DNA from: Spirochaetota bacterium
GTDB lineage: Bacteria > Spirochaetota > UBA12135 > COTS27 > CBDBHE01
Length of the DNA: 64,000 nt
Direction: 5' to 3'
Assembly (NCBI GenBank): GCA_965205605.1
Contig: CBDBHE010000006.1
Location: 128,001 to 192,000 of the forward strand
Shown here: positions 35,159 to 63,892 of the stretch, one piece after another
How the letters are laid out: each line of letters begins with the position of its first letter
How positions within the stretch are numbered: the first letter of the stretch is position 1
Notes under the pieces: model-generated
Databases searched by the model: none
What the model was told of the DNA's origin: nothing
The model's input: the letters and a program-made list of their open reading frames with translations, nothing else
Position numbers and translations under genes: made by a program

Positions 35159-35980
35159 TTGGAGCCATTGGTTGTTTTCGAATCTATTTTAAAAAGTCCT
35201 CTTTTTAAATCTAAAGAACAGAATTTAAGAAAAAAAATTAGAGGTTTAAAAAAAGTGATTGTTGCTTTTTCTGGAGGGGTGGATTCTTCTGTTGTGGCCA
35301 AAGTGTCTTCACAAGAGCTAGGGAAAGGGGCTTTGGTTTTAATTGGGGATTCACCTAGTCTTTCTAGAGAAAATTTAAAAATAGCCACTCAGATTGCAAA
35401 AGAGCATCATTTTTATTTTAAAACAGTGAATGTTTTTGAGCATTATAATCCAAAGTATTTTAACAATCCTAAAAATAGGTGTTTTTTTTGTAAATTTGAG
35501 CTTTATGAAACTTGTAAGCAAGTCAAGTTGAAAGAAAATTATGAGGCTATTTTAGATGGAAGTCATATAGATGATTTAAGTGATGATCGACCGGGGGAAG
35601 GAGCTGCAAAAAAAAAGGGGGTTGTAAGTGTTCTTAAGCAATTTGAGTTTAACAAAAAAGAAATACGAGCTTTTGCGTATCAATTAAAACTTAAAAATTA
35701 TCAAAAAATAGCTGAGCCTTGTCTTGCTTCACGTGTACTAACAGGAATTAAAATAACAAAAAAGGTTTTAAATAAAGTAGAACAAGCAGAAGCTTTTTTA
35801 AAAAAATTAGGATTTTTAGAAGTACGAGTACGGTATCATGGTAATTTTGCTAAAATTGAAGTTCCTTTTTTAAAAATAAAAAATCTTTTTTCTTTTAAAA
35901 AAATTATAGAAACTCGCTTTAAAAAAATCGGTTTTGAGCATATTACTATTGATTTAATAGGGTTAAAAAAGAGCTTTTAA
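35159..35980 (+). CDS. larE: LarE-like ATP-dependent sulfur transferase (PP-loop)
   Basis: AFSGGVDS, NRCFFCK, DDLSDDRPG, PCLASR, VRVRYH; TTG start. Confidence 0.85.
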   Translation: MEPLVVFESILKSPLFKSKEQNLRKKIRGLKKVIVAFSGGVDSSVVAKVSSQELGKGALVLIGDSPSLSRENLKIATQIAKEHHFYFKTVNVFEHYNPKYFNNPKNRCFFCKFELYETCKQVKLKENYEAILDGSHIDDLSDDRPGEGAAKKKGVVSVLKQFEFNKKEIRAFAYQLKLKNYQKIAEPCLASRVLTGIKITKKVLNKVEQAEAFLKKLGFLEVRVRYHGNFAKIEVPFLKIKNLFSFKKIIETRFKKIGFEHITIDLIGLKKSF

Positions 35981-36079
35981 AGAAGGCTGTTTATTGATTC
36001 TTTCTTAGGGTAGAGATTTAATTGATAGTATAATTTTATTTTTATTTTTAAAAACTCATAAAGAGAGGTTATTGATTTT

Positions 36080-36652
36080 ATGGTTGGAACAAATTATTTA
36101 AAAAAAGGAATTACCATTAAGAAGGTAAATAAATTGTGGTTTGTTATTAGTAGTTTTTTTGTCAAACCTGGAAAAGGAGCCGCTTTTTATAAAGCGAAGC
36201 TTAGGGAAATAAAAACAGGAAAAGTGGTTGAATACACTTTTAAATCAGGTGAGGAAATTGATTTAGTTGATACGGAAAGAAGAAATGTACAGTTTTTGTA
36301 TCAAGGTAGGCAAGAGTATGTTTTTATGGATGAGGAAAATTATGAACAATATCATTTAAAGATAGATATTGTAGGAGAAGAAGTTGCTCGGTTTTTAAAA
36401 GAAGAACAAAAGCTTGTTTTATTTTTTGTTGAAGAAGAGCCGATTAGTATAAGTTTTGTGAAGCAAAAATTATCTTTTAAAGTTGTAGAAGCTCCTCCGG
36501 GAGTAAAAGGAGATACAGTTAGTAATGCCTTTAAAACAGTGACGATTGATTCAGGAGCTAAGATACAAACGCCTCTTTTTATTAAAGAGGGCGAAGAGAT
36601 TATTGTTAATGTTGAAACGGGCGAATATTGCGAAAGAACGAAGGGTAATTAA
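36080..36652 (+). CDS. efp: Translation elongation factor P
   Basis: VKPGKG.AF, QFLY, FMD.ENYEQ, PGVKGDT, PLFI. Confidence 0.95.
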   Translation: MVGTNYLKKGITIKKVNKLWFVISSFFVKPGKGAAFYKAKLREIKTGKVVEYTFKSGEEIDLVDTERRNVQFLYQGRQEYVFMDEENYEQYHLKIDIVGEEVARFLKEEQKLVLFFVEEEPISISFVKQKLSFKVVEAPPGVKGDTVSNAFKTVTIDSGAKIQTPLFIKEGEEIIVNVETGEYCERTKGN

Positions 36653-36664
36653 AAGCAAATTGTA

Positions 36665-37555
36665 TTAAGTTTTATAAAGATAAGCGACTTGTTTTTCATA
36701 GCCATTGTAAGGCAGGGTTTTTTGGATTTTGTTGCTACCGATTAGTCTTTCCCATTTTTGGGACCACCTAGGGTGAGGTACTTTGGGGTTAACATTAGAG
36801 AAAAAGCCGTATTCTTTTGGAGCGACATCGTTCCAAAAAGTGGCTGGTTTTTTATTGGTGAATTCGATTGAAACAATACTTTTAATACTTTTATAGCCAT
36901 ATTTCCAAGGAGTAATGATTCTTACAGGGGCTCCATTTTGTTTTGGAAGTGCTTTCCCATACATTCCAATCGTCAATAAAGTAAGAGGATTTAAGGCTTC
37001 ATCTAGTCGCAGTCCTTCATAATAAGGCCAAGGATAATAGGGGGCTGTTTTAATACCAGGCATTTGTTTGGGTTTGTAAGCGGTTACAAATCGAACATAT
37101 TTTGCTTTTTTAAGAGGCTTGGCGTCTTTTATAATATCTCTAAAAGCGATTCCCATCCAAGGTACAACCATTGCCCATTTCTCAACACATCGAAATCGAT
37201 AGATCCTTTCCTCAACATTAAAACGCTTGGTATATGAATACAAATCTACTTTTTTTTGATTTTCACAAAGACCTTTAATTTCTATTTCCCAAGGATTGAT
37301 TTCAAATCGACGTGTGTTTTTTATTACTTTTTCTTTATCAAGACCAAACTCATAAAAGTTATTATAACTAGTTGCTATTTTTTCGTTTGTTATTTGTAAG
37401 TTAGTTTTTTTTTTGGCTTTAATAAAGGAAGCAAGACTAAAAGTAGTTGCTAAAAGAGCTGTTTTTTTTATGAAGCTTCTTCGATGATTAAAAATAGATT
37501 CATCAGTAACGTCATTTTCAGTTAAAGCCCATTCTTTTTTTTGATGATAATGCAT
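36665..37555 (-). CDS. msrP: Periplasmic protein-methionine-sulfoxide reductase, molybdopterin catalytic subunit
   Basis: Tat signal HRRSFIK, YNNFYEFG, RFRCVE.W, QNGAP.R, PWKYG.KS.K, HPRWSQ. Confidence 0.94.
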   Translation of the reverse strand: MHYHQKKEWALTENDVTDESIFNHRRSFIKKTALLATTFSLASFIKAKKKTNLQITNEKIATSYNNFYEFGLDKEKVIKNTRRFEINPWEIEIKGLCENQKKVDLYSYTKRFNVEERIYRFRCVEKWAMVVPWMGIAFRDIIKDAKPLKKAKYVRFVTAYKPKQMPGIKTAPYYPWPYYEGLRLDEALNPLTLLTIGMYGKALPKQNGAPVRIITPWKYGYKSIKSIVSIEFTNKKPATFWNDVAPKEYGFFSNVNPKVPHPRWSQKWERLIGSNKIQKTLPYNGYEKQVAYLYKT

Positions 37556-37592
37556 TTTTATAGGATTTGCTTCTTAAAGAGAAAACGAATCA

Positions 37593-38951
37593 TTATTCTG
37601 GAAAAATTTGATTACCTGCCTTTAGGTCAGAAACAACCGATATATCTTTTAAGGTTCTTTTTTGAGAAGGCCCATTTTCTAAATTAAGCACCCCTCTAGG
37701 GCAAACAGTAGAACACAACCCGCAACCTACGCAAGAAGATCTTACGATATTTTGTCCTCTTTGAGCGTACCATTTAACATCGATACCCATTTCACAATAA
37801 GTAGAACAATTGCCACAAGAAATACAAAGAGAACCATTAGTGGTGATTCGAAATCTTGAAAAAAACCGTTGTAAAACACCTAAAATAGCAGCTTGAGGGC
37901 ATCCAAATCGGCACCAAAGCCGTGTCCCAAAAATTGGATAAAATCCTGTCCCAACAACACCTGCAAAGACCATCCCAATCAAAGTCCCATAAACCATTCG
38001 AAATTCTTTTGATAAAGGACCAAAAATGGAGTTGGGTTTCATTAGATCAATCCATAAGAAAACGGTTGTCGTAATAATAAAAAGAAGCACGCTATAAATA
38101 CTAATTCTTTCTATTTTCCAAGAAATAAGCTTCTTAGAAGATAATTGTCTCCAAGGATCCCCAAGAGTATTGGCAAGGCCTCCACAACCACAAACCCAAG
38201 AACAATACCATCTTTTACCATAAAAATAAGTTAAAATAGGAACGGCAACAAAAGATAACGCAATCGACCAAGCGAGTAAAAAAATGCTTAATTTACCTGG
38301 ATGATTTAGCATATAATCAATATTACTTGGAAAAATGTCTTGATAACTTAAAGGCCAAAAATAATTTACGTATTTTTGAGGTTCTTTTAAAAAAACTAAA
38401 ATAGCTGGGATTAAATAAGCAAAAATAGATTGAAAAAAGATAACTGATAAGGTTCTAATAATTTGATAAGCACTGTGTCGATATTTTACGATTGCCCTAA
38501 TTCCCATCATGAAAATTAAAAAAGTATACAGAGAGCCATATAAGAAATATTGATCAGACCCCCTCCCTCTTAAAGAGTAAGAGAAAGCATCTGTCATTTT
38601 AATCAGATGTTTTAAAGTAAAAGGGAACCAATACATTAAAATATAAAACCCGGTTAAAAAAAGACACAGCATCCAAGCAAAGGCACCTCGGTGAGTTAAA
38701 AAAGATGTGGTAATGTTATCATTTTTAACCCCCGCAGGAGTTTTTAAGTAATGTTTTAAAATATAAATAAGAGCCCCTACACTTATAAAACTAAGGCTTA
38801 AACCAAAAAAAAGTTTTGGTTGATGACTGCCTCCACCAAAAGCACCAATAAAAAATAAAAAAACCCCAATAGAAAAAATAAAAAGACCACTTTTTTCTAT
38901 AAAGCCTAAAGAATAATCTTTAATAAGACTAGTTGAATCATTTGTATTCAT
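37593..38951 (-). CDS. Polytopic membrane 4Fe-4S binding protein (NapH/YccM-like polyferredoxin)
   Basis: Many TM helices; RWYCSWVCGCG, RLWCRFGCP, CISCGNCSTYC, CVGCGLCSTVCP. Confidence 0.88.
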   Translation of the reverse strand: MNTNDSTSLIKDYSLGFIEKSGLFIFSIGVFLFFIGAFGGGSHQPKLFFGLSLSFISVGALIYILKHYLKTPAGVKNDNITTSFLTHRGAFAWMLCLFLTGFYILMYWFPFTLKHLIKMTDAFSYSLRGRGSDQYFLYGSLYTFLIFMMGIRAIVKYRHSAYQIIRTLSVIFFQSIFAYLIPAILVFLKEPQKYVNYFWPLSYQDIFPSNIDYMLNHPGKLSIFLLAWSIALSFVAVPILTYFYGKRWYCSWVCGCGGLANTLGDPWRQLSSKKLISWKIERISIYSVLLFIITTTVFLWIDLMKPNSIFGPLSKEFRMVYGTLIGMVFAGVVGTGFYPIFGTRLWCRFGCPQAAILGVLQRFFSRFRITTNGSLCISCGNCSTYCEMGIDVKWYAQRGQNIVRSSCVGCGLCSTVCPRGVLNLENGPSQKRTLKDISVVSDLKAGNQIFPE

Positions 38952-38980
38952 TTTTAATTAAAACTCCTTGTATTGTGTTA

Positions 38981-40348
38981 TTAATTTCTACTTTGAAAGA
39001 TAGGGAATAATCCTTTTTTTGATTTTAATTTGATTGGATTTTCTTTGTGCAGGTTATTGTAAACATTAAGAACGTTTTTTTCAAAACTTTTATAAAATTC
39101 TGGATCAAAATTAACTTGCCCTAAATGAGCTAGAACATGAGAGAGCTTTTGTTTTTCGTGAATCCATTTTTCACATATTTGGTGTCTCCCTCGAATCCCT
39201 AAAAAATTAAAACCGATAACAGTTTGATTTGACTTTAAGTAGTTGATACGAATGCATCGTTGTCCATTAGGATCTTCCCAATAAATACTGGCTTCATTTT
39301 TTGGGTTTTTGTTTAAAATCATCCCATAAGTTTGATATTCAATATTAAAAAATTTAGCTGAATTAAACCAAATACCAGGAGAATAAAGGGTTTTTTCAAG
39401 AGTAATACTTCTGGCGACACATTCCCCTTGCATTTTTCCAGTATACCACAAAGGTTCACTTGGTTTTCGATTAGGGCTTGGCTTTTTTAAAGCAGAACAG
39501 TCCCCAATCGCATACACATCCTCCATGTTTGTTTGCATATAATCATTAACAAGAATTCCTTTTTTATCAATTTCAAGATCACTATCTTTTAAAAAATCAA
39601 CATTAGCTCTCACTCCTATAGTAATTCCTAAAAAATCACAAGGGATTTCTTCACCTTTAGTGGTAATAATAGCTCTGACTTGTCCTTGTTGATTAGATAA
39701 GATTTCTTTTAATTCTGTTTCAGTTTTAAGGTGAACATGGTGTCTTTTGATTTCTCGGGTAATAAGCTTTGCTTCTTCTTCAGGTAGGGTAGAGCTAAAA
39801 TACAAATGGCTGCGAATAAGAAAAGTGACTTTGATACCTCTAGACAAAAGCATTTCTGCCATTTCTACTCCAATAAGCCCTCCTCCAACAATGACTGCTT
39901 TTTTAATATTTTTAGTATTTTTTTCCATCTGCTCAAGCGATTGATAACTATAAAGTCCTTGGATGCCTTTTGATTCTTTTCCAGGCCAATTTAAAAAAAT
40001 AGGGATTGACCCTGTCGCTAAAATTAAAATATCATAATTCATTTCTTTTTCTTTAGATTTTTTTAAATGAAGTGTTTTATTTGAAAAATTGATTTTTTCT
40101 ACGTAAGCTTTAAGTAAGTTAATTTTATTTTTTTTCCAAAACCAATCTTCATAAGGTTTTGTTTGTTCATAAGTCAAATGCCCCATATAAATGTACATTA
40201 GAGCGGTTCTTGAGAAAAAGTGATCGGTTTCGTTTGAGATAATCGTAATGGTGTGCTTAGAATATTTTCTAATATATCGGGCAGCGGTAATGCCTGAAAT
40301 CCCATTTCCTATAATAACAATGTTTTTTTTAGTATTCACTTTGATCAT
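38981..40348 (-). CDS. NAD(P)/FAD-dependent pyridine nucleotide-disulfide oxidoreductase family protein
   Basis: IIGNGISG, LATGS, IVGGGLIGVE.AE, YAIGDC. Confidence 0.9.
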   Translation of the reverse strand: MIKVNTKKNIVIIGNGISGITAARYIRKYSKHTITIISNETDHFFSRTALMYIYMGHLTYEQTKPYEDWFWKKNKINLLKAYVEKINFSNKTLHLKKSKEKEMNYDILILATGSIPIFLNWPGKESKGIQGLYSYQSLEQMEKNTKNIKKAVIVGGGLIGVEMAEMLLSRGIKVTFLIRSHLYFSSTLPEEEAKLITREIKRHHVHLKTETELKEILSNQQGQVRAIITTKGEEIPCDFLGITIGVRANVDFLKDSDLEIDKKGILVNDYMQTNMEDVYAIGDCSALKKPSPNRKPSEPLWYTGKMQGECVARSITLEKTLYSPGIWFNSAKFFNIEYQTYGMILNKNPKNEASIYWEDPNGQRCIRINYLKSNQTVIGFNFLGIRGRHQICEKWIHEKQKLSHVLAHLGQVNFDPEFYKSFEKNVLNVYNNLHKENPIKLKSKKGLFPIFQSRN

Positions 40349-57914: not shown

Positions 57915-59015
57915 TTATTGATAAAGAGAATTATATTGCTCTATGATTTCATTCATGGCAAATCGTTTTCTAGCTGAATCATAAGCGTTTTTTGATAAAA
58001 CTTCCCATTTTTTAGGGTTGTTAATAAGGCTAAGAGCAATTTCAGTAGCTTTACTAATGTCTTTTGGCTCAAAAAGATACCCGTCTTTTCCTTCGATAAC
58101 GACTTCGCTCACTCCCCCGACTCGTGTTGAAATCACAGGGACTCCACAAGCCATTGCTTCTAAAGCAGCTAGTCCAAACGATTCGTCTTGACTGGTTGAT
58201 AAAAAGAAAGAAGCTTTTTTTAAAAAATGGGCTGGATTTACTTGAATCCCTAAAAATTTTACTTTATCTTCAATATTAAGTTTTTTACAAAGAGTAAGCA
58301 TACGATGTTCTAAAGGCCCTTCACCTACTACCCAAAGAAAACATTTTTTTGAAGTTTTTTTTTGAATTTGATCAAATATTTTAATTGTCTCAAGGGGATT
58401 TTTAACAACTCTTAAGTTGGAAGAATGAAAGAAGATAATGGGGTTTTCTAATTTTTTATTTTCTTTCATTTTATAATAATTTGGATTGACGAAATTATAA
58501 ATTGTTTGAATTTTATTTGGATTAATTTGAAAAAATTTCTCTGTTTTTTCTTTTAAATAATTACTAACAACAGTGATTTTATCGGAATTTTCGATGGCAT
58601 ATTTAGTAATGTGAATCATGGATGAATGAGACCCTACAATTGTAATGTCGGTGCCGTGTAAAGTTGTAATGCATTTAACTTTTTTTTTTGATATTTGTTT
58701 TGCTAAAATCGCTGCAATAGCATGAGGGATGGCGTAATGACTGTGAATAACATGAATGTTCATTCTTTCAACCAGCTCGGCTAATTGAGAAGCTAAAGCA
58801 AGAGTATAGGGTTGAAAATCAAAAACAGGGTATTCTTTTATAGAGATTTTGTGATAATGAATTTTTTCATTAAAATTTTCTTGATATCTAAAAGGATGTT
58901 GAAGACCAACAAAATGAACATGGTAATTTTTTTTCTCTGCCATGGCTTTACCAATTTCGTAAGCGACAATACCAGATCCACCCAATCGATGAAAATTTAA
59001 AATAGCAATATTCAT
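57915..59015 (-). CDS. bshA: N-acetyl-alpha-D-glucosaminyl L-malate synthase
   Basis: GGSGIVA.E.G, YPVF...PY, HSHYAIPHA, TTLHGTDIT.VG, SN.R.VK, ESFGLAALEAM; clustered with bshB1/bshC. Confidence 0.92.
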   Translation of the reverse strand: MNIAILNFHRLGGSGIVAYEIGKAMAEKKNYHVHFVGLQHPFRYQENFNEKIHYHKISIKEYPVFDFQPYTLALASQLAELVERMNIHVIHSHYAIPHAIAAILAKQISKKKVKCITTLHGTDITIVGSHSSMIHITKYAIENSDKITVVSNYLKEKTEKFFQINPNKIQTIYNFVNPNYYKMKENKKLENPIIFFHSSNLRVVKNPLETIKIFDQIQKKTSKKCFLWVVGEGPLEHRMLTLCKKLNIEDKVKFLGIQVNPAHFLKKASFFLSTSQDESFGLAALEAMACGVPVISTRVGGVSEVVIEGKDGYLFEPKDISKATEIALSLINNPKKWEVLSKNAYDSARKRFAMNEIIEQYNSLYQ

Positions 59016-59016
59016 T

Positions 59017-59742
59017 TTATTTTTTTTCTATATGAGCTAAAGGATCTTCTATTTTTAAAGGAGCATTAAAAAAAAACCCTTCTGCATAAGGCACACCGAT
59101 TAAACTTCCAAAGTACTTTGATTTTGAAATCAAAAGTTGCCAAAAGTGTGTTGATTTAATAAAGGTTTTGCTAGGCTGCTTTTCATCTTTTTCAGTGAAG
59201 ACCTGACTTTGATAACATTTTATAGCTTCTAATTTTTTTTCCCAAACAGGAGTAATATCAATAATAAAATCAGGTCTTTGAGTTGAGAAAAATTCGTTAA
59301 ATTGAAACAAGGTTTTTGGTTTATGTGCTTTTGTGTCTTTAATGTTTATTTTTTGAAGTCCAGAGAGAAAAAAACATTCTTGGATCATTTGGCCTGTGTA
59401 ATAATGATCTGGATGCCGTATCAGAGATCCTCCAAAACTAATCAGTGCTTGGGGTTGATAAGTGCGAATAACTTTAATAATTTTTTTTCTTGATGCTTCG
59501 TTATTTCTGATATTGCCATCGGGCAAATCAAGAGTAATTCTTTTGTCCAACTGTAAAGTTTTAGTTGCGTTTTCTGTTTCTTTTTTTCTTTTTTTTTCAT
59601 CTCCCAAGGTCCCTGCTTCTCCTTTGGATAAGTCACAAATGCCAATAGTATATCCTTTTTTTTTTAACATCATTAAGGTCCCACTTACAAAAAATTCACA
59701 GTCATCTGGGTGAGAACCAATAGCAAGATAATCTATTTTCAT
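59017..59742 (-). CDS. bshB1: Bacillithiol biosynthesis deacetylase
   Basis: HPDD.E, DLS.GEAGT.G, RHPDH, Y.SQ, G..IGVPYAEGF. Confidence 0.9.
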   Translation of the reverse strand: MKIDYLAIGSHPDDCEFFVSGTLMMLKKKGYTIGICDLSKGEAGTLGDEKKRKKETENATKTLQLDKRITLDLPDGNIRNNEASRKKIIKVIRTYQPQALISFGGSLIRHPDHYYTGQMIQECFFLSGLQKINIKDTKAHKPKTLFQFNEFFSTQRPDFIIDITPVWEKKLEAIKCYQSQVFTEKDEKQPSKTFIKSTHFWQLLISKSKYFGSLIGVPYAEGFFFNAPLKIEDPLAHIEKK

Positions 59743-60974
59743 TCCTTTGTTATTTCCAAAATATCAATCGTTTTTTTTTGAAAATCATAGATGTTTTCAA
59801 TTTTCTCAATAAAGTTTAGTCCATATAGGTTGAGATAATAAAATAAATTAAAAATTCTTTCTTGCGGTTTTCCATAAGGAGCTAATGAAGCAGAAATAAA
59901 TTGAAGATTTTTAATTTCTTTTTCTCTTTTTTCTTTTAATTTTTTTCTTTTTGCTCCAATAATTTCTTTTGATTTTTGAAATAACCATTTTTCTATTTCT
60001 TTTTTTTCGATATTAAGATTTTCTAATTGTGTAAAATAATGATGGTTTATTTTTTGAAATTTTTCTTTCAATTGGGATAAATTAACGTCTCCTTTAAAAA
60101 TAAAATAATCTTTTATTAAGTTGTCTTGCTCTTTGTTTAGAAAAAAATCCCAAGAAAGGCCTAATTTTTTAAGGATTTTTTTTATAGAGGGTTCTATCAA
60201 AATAGCAGACATTCGTTTTTGAATTTTTGGTAGTTTGACTTGATGAAAATGATATTGTGCTTTTAAATTTTTTAAATAAACCTCTTCACTTGGACCGGTG
60301 ATATAAGTATGAGTTTTGAAGTAAGCATCTTGGAGGACGCTTCTTGTTTTAAGGTGAGGGAGTAAGGAATGGTTTTCAATAGAGACTACTTGATTGTTTC
60401 GATCTACGAATTGGTTGTTTTTTTTAAAAAGGGTTTTTCTTTGGTCGTTAATAGAAACAAATAAATTGCATTGATTGCCTTCAGGAGTTTTATGAGCTTC
60501 TTTGATTAAAAAAGGTTTTGCAAAGTTTAGGAAAGATTTTTCTGAAGGATCAAAAAAAACAAGCGAATTATTTTTAAAAAGTTTTTTGGCTAATTTGAGG
60601 GAAGCTTTCATAAGAGTGTTTCCTTTAATATAGCAATCAAAGCAAAGAGATTTAAGAAAAGAAGTGTTTTCTGTTTGGTGGATGTCATCAAAAAAAATAT
60701 TTAAAAGCTTGATTAAATGTTCATCAATGATGACTTTTCCAATTGAAAGTCCATGAGTTTTTTTTTCCCATTTTAATTTTTTTAAAACATTTTTTTTATT
60801 AAGATAATCGATGGTGTTAATTTCATTAAAATCAGCATCATTAGATTCCATCCAATAAATAGCGGTTCCTTTTAGTTGTTTGGCTAACTCCAAAGAGCCT
60901 AAAACTTTATAAGTAGTAAAGAGAGGCCCTCCCAAGAGGCCAATTTGTTGACCGGTAACAATATTTGGTTGCAT
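59739..60974 (-). CDS. bshC: Bacillithiol biosynthesis cysteine-adding enzyme (compact form)
   Basis: VTGQQ.GL.GGPL.T.YK, WM...D.DF.EI, Y..GP.E..Y, P.G.PQER..N. Confidence 0.85.
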   Translation of the reverse strand: MQPNIVTGQQIGLLGGPLFTTYKVLGSLELAKQLKGTAIYWMESNDADFNEINTIDYLNKKNVLKKLKWEKKTHGLSIGKVIIDEHLIKLLNIFFDDIHQTENTSFLKSLCFDCYIKGNTLMKASLKLAKKLFKNNSLVFFDPSEKSFLNFAKPFLIKEAHKTPEGNQCNLFVSINDQRKTLFKKNNQFVDRNNQVVSIENHSLLPHLKTRSVLQDAYFKTHTYITGPSEEVYLKNLKAQYHFHQVKLPKIQKRMSAILIEPSIKKILKKLGLSWDFFLNKEQDNLIKDYFIFKGDVNLSQLKEKFQKINHHYFTQLENLNIEKKEIEKWLFQKSKEIIGAKRKKLKEKREKEIKNLQFISASLAPYGKPQERIFNLFYYLNLYGLNFIEKIENIYDFQKKTIDILEITKE

Positions 60975-61109
60975 TTTTTTTGATAGCAGAAAATAAATAA
61001 TAGATATTTTGCTATGGAACAGCTTTTGTTAGAAGCTTAAGTAAGAATTTTCTTTTTAAGAAAAATGGAAAAGAAAAATATTTTTTTTTATCTAAAAGAA
61101 GGTTAACAA

Positions 61110-61880
61110 TTAATACTTGGGGACTTGTTGATCAATTTTCTCAGACCAAGCTTGGATACCACCGGTCATTTTAAAAACATTTGTAAACCCTTGTTGATTG
61201 AAAAAACGAACGGCTTGATGACTATGTTTACCTTGATGACAATATAAAACAATCAAAGTATCTTTAGACCAATTTTTTAAAATATTTTGGAAATAGGCTT
61301 CGTTTAAAAATTCGCTTCCTTCAATAAAAGCTTTTTTTCTTTCCCATTGGGCACGAGAGTCGAGTAGTTTGATTTCTTTTTTTTTAAGTTTTTCTTTGAC
61401 TTCTTCAGGAGTCATTTCTAAGGCTTTAGAAGGATCTTTAATTTGAATAGATTCATTAATTTTTTCGCCATAAAATTTATCGTAAATACTTGTAATAAAG
61501 GTTAAAAGAGAAGCTGGATTAAATCCTTCGATTTGATGACGCTCAATCATATAAATTAATTGTTGATCTTTAAAAAAAGCAATCGAAGGGGAAGACGGTG
61601 CATAGCCTTCAAAATATTTTCTTGCTTCTTCTGTTGCTTCCATATCGACTCCGGCAAAGACAGTATAGATTTTTTGAGGCGTGAGTGGGTTTTTTAAAGA
61701 TTCGATCAAAGCTGGTCTTGCAGAGGCCGCAGAGCATCCACAAACAGAATTAACTAAGACAACATAACTTCCTTTTTCATTGGATAAGCTTTGATTGACT
61801 TGTTGGGAGCTTGTAAGCTCTTTAACCCCATTACGAGTTAATTCCTCTCGCATTGGTTGAGTGATCGTTGGATTATACAT
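61110..61880 (-). CDS. BrxA/BrxB bacilliredoxin fused to a C-terminal rhodanese domain
   Basis: PMREELT, VNSVCGCSA..ARP, TVFAGVD, PSSPS.A.FK, ERHQIEG; then LLDSR...IEGS...YCHQGKHS...GGIQAWS.KID..VPKY. Confidence 0.88.
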   Translation of the reverse strand: MYNPTITQPMREELTRNGVKELTSSQQVNQSLSNEKGSYVVLVNSVCGCSAASARPALIESLKNPLTPQKIYTVFAGVDMEATEEARKYFEGYAPSSPSIAFFKDQQLIYMIERHQIEGFNPASLLTFITSIYDKFYGEKINESIQIKDPSKALEMTPEEVKEKLKKKEIKLLDSRAQWERKKAFIEGSEFLNEAYFQNILKNWSKDTLIVLYCHQGKHSHQAVRFFNQQGFTNVFKMTGGIQAWSEKIDQQVPKY

Positions 61881-62011
61881 GTATTATTATAAGATAAATT
61901 TACTTTTTTTAAAAATTTATTGAAATTAACAAGTTATTTTCTATTTTAAAATCAATAATTGTGGGTTTTTTATGAAAATAAGTTTAAACTATATCTAGAG
62001 GTTTTTCTTAA

Positions 62012-63892
62012 ATGTTTTTTTTTCCCTTTCAAAAGAAATTTTTAAAGATTATTTTTATTTTTACTCTTATTCCTTTGCTTTATGCGATTCCTAAAGAAAG
62101 CAAAAATATTGATAAACTCATTAAAAAAAATCTTTTAAAAAAAGGAATGACTCTATCTCCTTTAGCAACAGATACCACTTTCCTAAAGCGTGTTTATCTA
62201 GTTGTTGCAGGGCGCATTCCTCACTATAAAGAAGCAAAACGTTTTCTTAATTCTACAGATAATTTAAAAAGAGAAAAGCTTATTAAAAAGCTTCTTAAAA
62301 GTGAGGATTATGTCAATAGTTTTTATAATTTTTGGGCAGATTTATTGGCTATTAAACCAGTTGATTTTGGTGGGAAAATGGGGGATTATAGAAAAAATTT
62401 TTTTGATCAATGGATGAAAAAAATGATACGAGAAGATCAGTCTTATCGAAAAATAGTTGAAAAAATCATTTCTGCTGAAGGGGATATTTTTAATAACCCA
62501 CAAACTTATTACTTCATTCAAGATGATAGAAAAAATATGCTTTTGGAAAAAACGGGCATGATGGCTCAATCTTTTCTTGGTACTCGTATCGGTTGTGCCC
62601 AATGCCATGATCATAAAAGTGATAAATGGACACAAGAGCAATTTTATCAAAACGCTGCTTTTTTTTCTGGGCTTACTTTTAAAAATTATAATACTAGACA
62701 AGTTAGAACTGTAAGAAGAAATTTAGGAAAAATCGAGAAATCTATTTCTAAAAAAGAAAGAAAGAAAATTAGAAGATTTTTAAGAACCCTAGAAGGAAAT
62801 TACCTTATTAAAGAAAACAAAAAAAATAATCTTAAATACCCAGATAATTATATTTATGATAAAGGAAAACAAGGAAAGGTTGTTTCGCATAAAGTATTAT
62901 TTGGTCGTTTGAGAGAAAACCCAGAAGAAACAAAAAGAGAAAATTATGCTGCTTGGCTGACGTCCGCTTATAATAGGCGTTTTACTAAAACCATTGTTAA
63001 TCGCTTGTGGAGAGAAGTGATGGGACAGGGATTTTTTGAACCCGTCGATGATCTCAAGGATAACAATCTTGTTTTTAATCGACCTTTATTTGATTATTTA
63101 GAAAGATTAATGAGAAGAAAAAATTATAAAATTAAATCTTTCTTGTCTATTTTACTCAATTCAAAAGCCTTTCAAATGGATTCTAAGATTTTTGATAAAG
63201 AAGATTATCAAGGAGAAGGGTATGTTTTTAGAAGAATGACTCCGTATCAAATTTGGGATTCTCTTGAGTTAATAAGATTAGGAAAATCTGTTTTTAATAT
63301 TCCTGTTAAAGATAAAATTGTTTCAGTTGAAGAAGATTTGAAACGAACTTCTTTTATTAGAAAAACACTTGAAACTTGGAAAGTTGATTTTAATTTAGCT
63401 TATAAAAATATAGAGCAAAATGAAGAATCGTTTCAAAAATTAACTAAAACAGCTAACGATTATTTTAATTTTTCAAAACGAAAAAAAGGAGAAAATATAC
63501 GATTTATATTTTATCCGAGTTCGTATATAAGCTATTTTCCTTATCGATTAAAACAAGGTAACTTTTTAAAAGAATTTGGTATGACAGATAGAGAAAGTGT
63601 TAGCCACTGCTCTATTGAGCCAAGTATCCCGCAATCTCTTTTTTTAATGAACAGCTTTTATGTTAATAAGTTGGTTCTTAATGCCAGGACTTTAAGGGTT
63701 TCTTTTGAAGGACTGGGTTCTTTGAAAGAGGTCCTTGATTTTGTGTATTTATCTGTTTTGAGTCGTTTTCCTTTAGATGAAGAAATGCGTATATGGCAAG
63801 AGCATTATAAAGGAAAATTTAATAAAAATAAACATTACAAGCAGATTTTATGGACGGTGATTAATAGTCGAGAGTTTATTTTTATTCAATAA
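62012..63892 (+). CDS. DUF1549/DUF1553 (PSD1-type) exported protein
   Basis: FLKRVYL...GRIP, WADLL, FLGTRIGCAQCHDH, VNRLW...MG.G..EPVDD, QSLFLMN, W...NS.EF.F. Confidence 0.88.
   Translation: MFFFPFQKKFLKIIFIFTLIPLLYAIPKESKNIDKLIKKNLLKKGMTLSPLATDTTFLKRVYLVVAGRIPHYKEAKRFLNSTDNLKREKLIKKLLKSEDYVNSFYNFWADLLAIKPVDFGGKMGDYRKNFFDQWMKKMIREDQSYRKIVEKIISAEGDIFNNPQTYYFIQDDRKNMLLEKTGMMAQSFLGTRIGCAQCHDHKSDKWTQEQFYQNAAFFSGLTFKNYNTRQVRTVRRNLGKIEKSISKKERKKIRRFLRTLEGNYLIKENKKNNLKYPDNYIYDKGKQGKVVSHKVLFGRLRENPEETKRENYAAWLTSAYNRRFTKTIVNRLWREVMGQGFFEPVDDLKDNNLVFNRPLFDYLERLMRRKNYKIKSFLSILLNSKAFQMDSKIFDKEDYQGEGYVFRRMTPYQIWDSLELIRLGKSVFNIPVKDKIVSVEEDLKRTSFIRKTLETWKVDFNLAYKNIEQNEESFQKLTKTANDYFNFSKRKKGENIRFIFYPSSYISYFPYRLKQGNFLKEFGMTDRESVSHCSIEPSIPQSLFLMNSFYVNKLVLNARTLRVSFEGLGSLKEVLDFVYLSVLSRFPLDEEMRIWQEHYKGKFNKNKHYKQILWTVINSREFIFIQ

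Follow-up and report, generated by a model that had tools for sequence, protein, structure and literature searches.

The 64,000-nucleotide stretch of DNA analysed here (hereafter the window; positions 128,001 to 192,000 of contig CBDBHE010000006.1, assembly GCA_965205605.1, Spirochaetota bacterium) carries on its reverse strand, at 61110..61880, a gene in which a bacilliredoxin (Brx) domain is fused to a rhodanese domain. This Brx-rhodanese fusion is real, conserved, rare, and uncharacterised. Its product is best explained as a cytoplasmic two-domain thiol enzyme, composed of an N-terminal bacilliredoxin with a Cys-Gly-Cys (CGC) motif, a short ordered linker, and a GlpE-type rhodanese with one catalytic cysteine. 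Judged from sequence, structural models, and analogy, the protein may be a bacillithiol-dependent persulfide reductase or sulfurtransferase that is also the general bacilliredoxin of the cell, a tentative reading that is given slightly less than an even chance.

The gene forms one frame of 256 amino acids (aa), with its ATG at 61880 and a TAA at 61110-61112, and no internal stop was found on the reverse strand in the frame from ATG to TAA. The Brx domain (aa 2-136; 61473..61877) scores 172 bits against the Pfam family PF06491 (Disulph_isomer; cut-off 25) and 174.1 bits against the NCBIfam BrxA/BrxB model TIGR04191 (cut-off 100), of which it covers profile positions 1-135 of 136; its redox motif, Cys47-Gly48-Cys49 within VNSVCGC, is encoded at 61734..61742. 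An inter-domain linker (aa 137-156; 61413..61472), in which Gly138 and Pro150 are near-invariant, leads into a single rhodanese domain (aa 157-248; 61137..61412; PF00581, 59.6 bits against a cut-off of 22.2). The rhodanese active-site loop runs from Cys214 through His-Gln-Gly-Lys to His219 and is followed by Ser220 (YCHQGKHS; 61221..61241), and the protein ends in the tail motif GGIQAWSEKIDQQVPKY. All of these features lie on the reverse strand. The preliminary description of this locus, that one open reading frame joins an intact BrxA/B domain to a complete single-domain rhodanese, is therefore borne out, as are the three motifs that it quoted. Both domains are complete and both cysteine sites are conserved.

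PF06491 and PF00581 are the only Pfam domains in the protein, and a pyridine-nucleotide disulfide oxidoreductase domain is absent; neither PF00462 nor PF00085 matched at E values up to 0.01, the redoxin domain being PF06491. The Brx half belongs to the BrxA/BrxB family on all three counts of score, motif, and fold, and departs from it only in architecture, the chain having 256 aa including the C-terminal rhodanese instead of standing alone at about 145 aa. The other half is a single rhodanese domain that resembles GlpE. In NCBIfam it gave only below-threshold matches (a rhodanese-related selenoprotein model, the C-terminus of MoeZ, and GlpE), and the score against the GlpE equivalog model was 48.4 against a cut-off of 102, so that it is not a GlpE orthologue. 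The ID..VP.Y form of the tail occurs in one sub-clade of the fusions.

AlphaFold2 folds the window's protein into a confident single body (predicted local distance difference test score, pLDDT, 93.0; predicted template modelling score, pTM, 0.79), and does the same with P0124, a fusion that is 40% identical to it (pLDDT 95.6, pTM 0.89). The linker is well ordered in the model (block pLDDT 91-96), which suggests a fixed interface between the Brx and rhodanese domains. The Brx part superposes on Staphylococcus aureus BrxA carrying a bacillithiol mixed disulfide (7rzb) with a Z score of 24.3 and a root-mean-square deviation (rmsd) of 0.9 over 135 residues. The rhodanese part matches GlpE (1gn0) with Z 17.2 and rmsd 2.0 over 101 residues, at approximately 23% identity, and also the rhodanese-fold domains of MOCS3 (Z 13.9), TSTD1 (Z 13.5), Npsr (3nt6; Z 13.0), and the CstB/PRF-type fusions (5ve3-5ve5; Z 12.4); none of the structure matches was a solved chain spanning both domains. 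The same part matches Cdc25A/B (Z 10.7-11.2), and Acr2-type enzymes use glutaredoxin, so an arsenate reductase or phosphatase of the Acr2/Cdc25 rhodanese fold, with the Brx domain as reductant, was also considered. However, the Acr2/Cdc25 loop motif is the seven-residue C-x5-R, whereas CHQGKH is a six-residue C-x-x-G-x-x loop whose alignment to the loop of GlpE is gapless, and no ars genes were found near the fusion. An enzyme of this type was rejected on loop length and is almost certainly not what the gene encodes.

The fusion is not an assembly chimera or a frameshift artefact, because its homologues are full-length in a single frame and independent contigs span the junction. Whole-genome searches recovered full-length, stop-free homologues from seven of the eight other genomes of the window's order; the fusion was not found in the remaining genome (G002), which is 82% complete. 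Another 18 protein clusters, formed at 90%, carry the same architecture. Additionally, short contigs of sequencing run X1, produced with an independent assembler, cover 61047-61583 without indels, including the junction at 61413-61472 and the nearby A/T runs; these contigs are low in depth and fragmentary, and the sample from which the window came may be X1 itself. A stop or frameshift between the domains, which the preliminary description had named among the findings that would refute its reading, is thus absent. A foreign island was likewise ruled out, as the GC content stays at 0.27-0.32 across 55-64 kb with no step.

The architecture is rare. A search of 5.8 billion proteins returned 19 clusters with both Pfam domains, the window's own included (247-307 aa; 46-88% identity to the window's protein), and the other 101 of the 120 listed matches are stand-alone Brx proteins of about 140-200 aa. 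Searched exhaustively, a set of 1.84 billion representatives yielded 4763 matching proteins at E values up to 0.001. The best 150 of these, 24 of which were selected for their length or for matching the rhodanese part and scanned with Pfam, include ten full-length fusions (P0003, P0008, P0121-P0125, P0127, P0129, and P0145) and one fragment carrying both domains (P0128), and no fusion in the reverse, rhodanese-Brx order is among them. A genome-contig search with the window's protein gave one fused locus among the 80 matches listed, in Spirochaetes bacterium COTS27 (L022), and all of the at least 80 loci listed in a metagenome-contig search with an alignment are stand-alone brx genes. The worry that the architecture might prove common or already characterised is not supported by these counts, nor by the literature search, which found no description of a Brx-rhodanese fusion. 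To our knowledge, the bacilliredoxins known to date are all de-bacillithiolating enzymes that stand alone. Other Brx fusions were seen in metagenomes: P0234 joins Brx to a TIR domain (316 aa), and P0156 and P0218 join TPR to Brx (332 and 307 aa, respectively).

Within the window's phylum, PF06491 was detected in 10 of 401 sampled genomes, eight of them in the window's order and two in a second family (f10). Eight of the nine genomes of the order are Brx-positive, each with a single PF06491 match in a frame of 250-277 aa, and in the window's own genome (G000) the fusion is the sole match; both sampled f10 genomes carry a stand-alone Brx in frames of 171-172 aa. In a quick tree of the Brx domain (81 rows), 47 of the 49 stand-alone sequences and both f10 sequences fall on one side of a branch with a support of 94 (Shimodaira-Hasegawa-like approximate likelihood ratio test), with 30 fused sequences and two long-branch stand-alone rows on the other. 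This split is compatible with a single origin of the fusion, which is not proven. COTS27, a crown-of-thorns starfish symbiont, is placed in a 'marine spirochete' clade that is thought to be a separate order, according to part of its genome paper (PMC7444263); in the text of that paper, supplementary tables aside, the words bacillithiol, rhodanese, sulfur, and thiol do not appear. In one genome of the order (G008), a 117-aa gene directly downstream of the fusion (L106:9191-9544, reverse strand) is a near-identical copy of its rhodanese part, which reflects either a tandem duplication of recent date or a repeat in the assembly.

As a bacillithiol-dependent persulfide enzyme, the fusion protein would act through both of its cysteine sites. 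Cys214 would accept sulfane sulfur from a donor, either a persulfide or a polysulfide, and become Cys214-SSH; the donor could be a low-molecular-weight persulfide (e.g. bacillithiol persulfide) or a persulfidated protein, with thiosulfate less likely here. The Brx domain and bacillithiol would then resolve the Cys214 persulfide by either of two routes. The sulfur could be handed to bacillithiol, or sulfide could be released, leaving a CGC disulfide or a mixed disulfide between Brx and bacillithiol. Bacillithiol would clear this disulfide, and YpdA with NADPH would re-reduce the oxidised bacillithiol in G000. As the fusion is the sole Brx, it should also perform general de-bacillithiolation, which would include keeping its own rhodanese cysteine free.

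The genome of the window has the genes that this scheme would draw on. It carries bshA (57915..59015; 411 bits against a cut-off of 273.7), bshB1 (59017..59742; 223 bits against 182.5), and a short bshC-like gene of 411 aa (59739..60974), all on the reverse strand, together with the bacillithiol-disulfide reductase YpdA (383.8 bits against a cut-off of 339.9), and so offers the host setting expected of BrxA/BrxB. The ypdA gene lies on the reverse strand in a convergent arrangement with a thioredoxin-family gene on the opposite strand, approximately 660 nt away (G000:C7:263785-265691). G000 also encodes two thioredoxins, cysteine desulfurases, and three other rhodanese domains, one of which belongs to a 365-aa ThiF+rhodanese protein encoded elsewhere. 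The best cysteine desulfurase match, outside the window at G000:C6:234487-235597 (reverse strand), falls into two frames, and its N-terminal piece contains a TGA; this may be a homopolymer frameshift.

Across the order, bshA scores over its cut-off in all nine genomes. A survey of 2018 lists Spirochaetes among the lineages without a documented or predicted low-molecular-weight thiol (PMC6282198); in contrast, a group of marine-type spirochaetes, COTS27 included, encodes a bacillithiol system. The BshC of the order is shortened throughout. The window's copy reaches 217 bits against the TIGR03998 cut-off of 265.8 and matches from profile position 79, and all nine genomes show matches that begin at profile positions 39-79 in frames of 408-488 aa, none of which reaches the cut-off; in the f10 spirochaetes, where Brx is stand-alone, BshC is full-length at 548-550 aa and exceeds that cut-off. 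The gene called bshC in the preliminary description is therefore bshC-like and shortened rather than canonical. Against PDB entry 4wbd, the window's BshC scores 84 bits.

Conservation was examined in 28 fused sequences, the window's protein included. The CGC motif is invariant (28/28), and a cysteine occupies the rhodanese position in 26. This retention bears directly on the main rival to a persulfide role, namely that the protein is an ordinary general-purpose bacilliredoxin in which the rhodanese carries no sulfur and serves as a docking, stabilising, or redox-sensing module. It argues against that rival, as the sequences are only 30-54% identical to the window's protein, and so do the invariant Gly217 and Ser220 of the loop region in 26 aligned members and the retained six-residue catalytic loop geometry of GlpE. 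However, general de-bacillithiolation must reside in the fusion wherever it is the sole Brx of a Brx-bearing genome, and a plain bacilliredoxin would also be at home beside the housekeeping genes described below, with no sulfur-gene context, a variable loop, and an occasional loss of the rhodanese cysteine. This rival is possible, and is held to be less probable than the persulfide enzyme.

Several observations weigh against the persulfide reading. The rhodanese cysteine is replaced by serine in P0127 and P0129, and so not every member needs to carry sulfur; these two proteins amount to a natural experiment on the rhodanese cysteine. The loop sequence is poorly conserved: its end residue is Arg in 21 of the 28 sequences, Gln in two, Ser in one, and Met in one, with His in the window's protein (His219) and its 88% relative and Leu in the COTS27-type protein. 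Uptake of sulfur from thiosulfate is described, in part of PMC8533005, as needing Arg, Thr, or Ser at the end of the loop, so that His219 makes thiosulfate a doubtful donor for the window's protein, as judged from the residue itself. Persulfide donors are unaffected by this argument and are not excluded. YpdA scores over its cut-off in only three of the nine genomes of the order (G000, G005, and G007), with a 117-bit match in G004 and no match at E values up to 1e-15 in G001, G003, G006, and G008; the proposed recycling step is therefore not order-wide. A search of the 91%-complete genome G000 for TusA (PF01206) gave no match.

Gene neighbourhoods count against it as well. The order fusion-bshC-bshB-bshA occurs in the window and in G004 only (2/8 fusion genomes), and in the remaining six the fusion has housekeeping neighbours and no sulfur genes: trpS-serS in COTS27 (L022) and G008, tig-clpP-clpX in G003, and ndk, a gene for an RDD protein, and rpsF in G007, for instance. 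No sulfide-oxidation gene was found in the scanned 29-64 kb of the window. In other lineages, none of 159 stand-alone brx loci has an adjoining rhodanese gene; rhodanese-profile matches occur at three of 79 loci in genomes, the nearest 5.8 kb away, and at none of 80 in metagenomes. Overall, the earlier proposal that the fusion couples persulfide transfer to bacillithiol is plausible and only partly supported. The architecture itself, the two cysteine sites, the bsh genes, and YpdA speak for it, and the rarity of the bsh link, the serine replacements, His219, and the want of adjoining rhodanese genes at stand-alone brx loci against.

The position of the fusion in the window was earlier described as heading a bacillithiol operon. 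In the window and in G004, the fusion does lie immediately upstream of bshC-bshB1-bshA in the same orientation, a linkage that the six other fusion genomes lack. In the window, a gap of 135 nt separates the fusion from the bshC-like gene downstream, the stop of which shares 4 nt with bshB1; bshA comes 1 nt after bshB1 and is followed by pepN. A sigma-70-like promoter match (10 of 12 positions; 61886..61913, reverse strand) lies just upstream of the fusion ATG. It is a consensus match only, and the 22 promoter-like matches in the region are near the shuffled mean of 17.9. A consensus scan found no terminator-like site in the gap between the fusion and bshC.

This arrangement, taken with the short BshC of all nine genomes and the full-length BshC of the stand-alone-Brx family f10, could point to a role in bacillithiol synthesis, in which the fusion would assist the short BshC, for example by supplying or protecting cysteine sulfur at the last step. 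However, the fusion and the short BshC are found together in just one lineage, so that their pairing amounts to one evolutionary event, and the fusion is unlinked to the bsh genes in most of its genomes. In G002, a 240-aa S-adenosylmethionine-dependent methyltransferase gene (L110:783-1505, forward strand) lies directly upstream of bshC-bshB-bshA, in the position that the fusion takes in the window, and the fusion was not found in that genome. Such a biosynthetic role is therefore considered highly improbable. By analogy, the G002 methyltransferase could be an N-methyl-bacillithiol synthase like NmbA, as described in part of PMC6282198.

A second neighbourhood has its own candidate explanation, that the protein serves ribonucleotide reductase as a dedicated electron donor, with an NrdH-like role for the bacillithiol system. 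In G005 (L104:9257-13847, reverse strand), nrdA, nrdB, and the fusion form a string on one strand in which 10 nt separate the fusion ATG from the stop of nrdB, and in G001, where coaBC and a UPF0176-type rhodanese gene lie upstream of the fusion, nrdA is approximately 3.3 kb downstream on the same strand. The tight link is nevertheless restricted to one of the eight fusion genomes and is absent in G007, of the same genus as G005, and in the window, and a reductase donor would leave the rhodanese domain unexplained. This explanation is unlikely, if somewhat less so than a part in bacillithiol synthesis.

Two other parts of the window were recorded. Divergent from the fusion, at 62012-63892 on the forward strand, lies a gene for a 626-aa protein with PSCyt2 (DUF1549) and PSD1 (DUF1553) domains. 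These families are typical of Planctomycetes, and the protein is therefore unexpected in a small spirochaete genome. Further away, at 35159-40348, is a redox gene cluster comprising a LarE-type sulfur transferase (35159-35980, forward strand), MsrP (36665-37555; 406 bits), a NapH-like ferredoxin protein (37593-38951), and a flavoprotein that resembles coenzyme A (CoA)-disulfide reductase and scores under its cut-off (38981-40348), the last three on the reverse strand.

In comparison to known systems, each half of the fusion has counterparts. The N-terminal 136 aa resemble BrxA/BrxB (YphP/YqiW) of Bacillus subtilis and S. aureus (3fhk, 7rzb; phmmer E 7e-32 against 3fhk), with which the fusion shares the CGC motif and its genome the bsh genes and YpdA. 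BrxA/BrxB are stand-alone proteins, 147 aa in the PDB entries, whereas the fusion has a C-terminal rhodanese and is the only copy in its organism. The rhodanese half shares the fold of GlpE and TSTD1 (1gmx/1gn0, 6bev), and its catalytic cysteine heads a six-residue loop as in GlpE. In contrast to these proteins, it is joined to its presumed thiol partner and its loop ends in His rather than Ser or Arg; thioredoxin reportedly interacts with GlpE (Ray et al. 2000). With MoeZ, Uba4, and MOCS3 the likeness extends over the linker and rhodanese (aa 133-256), which align with the last 124 residues of the MoeZ model NF005902 at 51 bits, far under its cut-off of 647, and the fusion lacks their E1/ThiF domain.

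Other systems also join a rhodanese to an enzyme of low-molecular-weight thiols or persulfides. CoADR-RHD and the NADH-dependent persulfide reductase Npsr (3ict, 3nt6) are such enzymes with a C-terminal rhodanese, and CoADR-RHD is proposed, in part of PMC5790435, to be a CoA-persulfide reductase. However, both are flavoprotein disulfide reductases, about 550-565 aa long, that draw directly on CoA and NAD(P)H, whereas the fusion lacks a flavin domain and would rely on bacillithiol. The persulfide dioxygenase-rhodanese fusions CstB and PRF (5ve3-5ve5) likewise attach a rhodanese to an enzyme of low-molecular-weight persulfides, and CstB acts on bacillithiol persulfide according to the same portion of PMC5790435. 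Their chemistry is oxidative and that of the fusion would be reductive, and both the metallo-beta-lactamase domain and a cst-like operon are absent here.

The closest likeness in design is to the glutaredoxin (Grx)-rhodanese and thioredoxin (Trx)-rhodanese fusions, in which a thioredoxin-fold redoxin and a rhodanese-type domain share a chain of about 210-330 aa, and the idea that the window's protein is their bacillithiol counterpart fits as an analogy. Atlas clusters with Grx+Rhodanese and Trx+Rhodanese (51 to 2149 members) were matched at scores of 0.77-0.82, which are leads only; these lie under the reliable level and therefore indicate an analogy of architecture, not whole-protein homology. 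The literature search found fusions of this kind catalogued and none characterised: a frataxin-rhodanese-GRX fusion is noted in a part of PMC2679010, and MST-GRX fusions are mentioned in a part of PMC11763069. They differ in their redoxin, which is PF00462 or PF00085, whereas here it is the bacillithiol-specific PF06491. By design, the fusion is thus a bacillithiol-type addition to a recurrent redoxin-rhodanese class. Seen against this class, a wider interpretation is possible, albeit unlikely as a whole: the sole bacilliredoxin would wire the bacillithiol pool to sulfane-sulfur chemistry as a self-contained bacillithiol:persulfide oxidoreductase, producing or consuming bacillithiol persulfide. 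It would then be the first dedicated reductive enzyme for bacillithiol persulfide, would found a bacillithiol branch of the redoxin-rhodanese fusions, and may have co-evolved with the short BshC. For the reductive handling of persulfides by bacillithiol systems, the fusion, as the sole Brx across the order, offers a concrete, readily expressible candidate link of 256 aa, alongside the CoA-dependent CoADR-RHD and the oxidative CstB.

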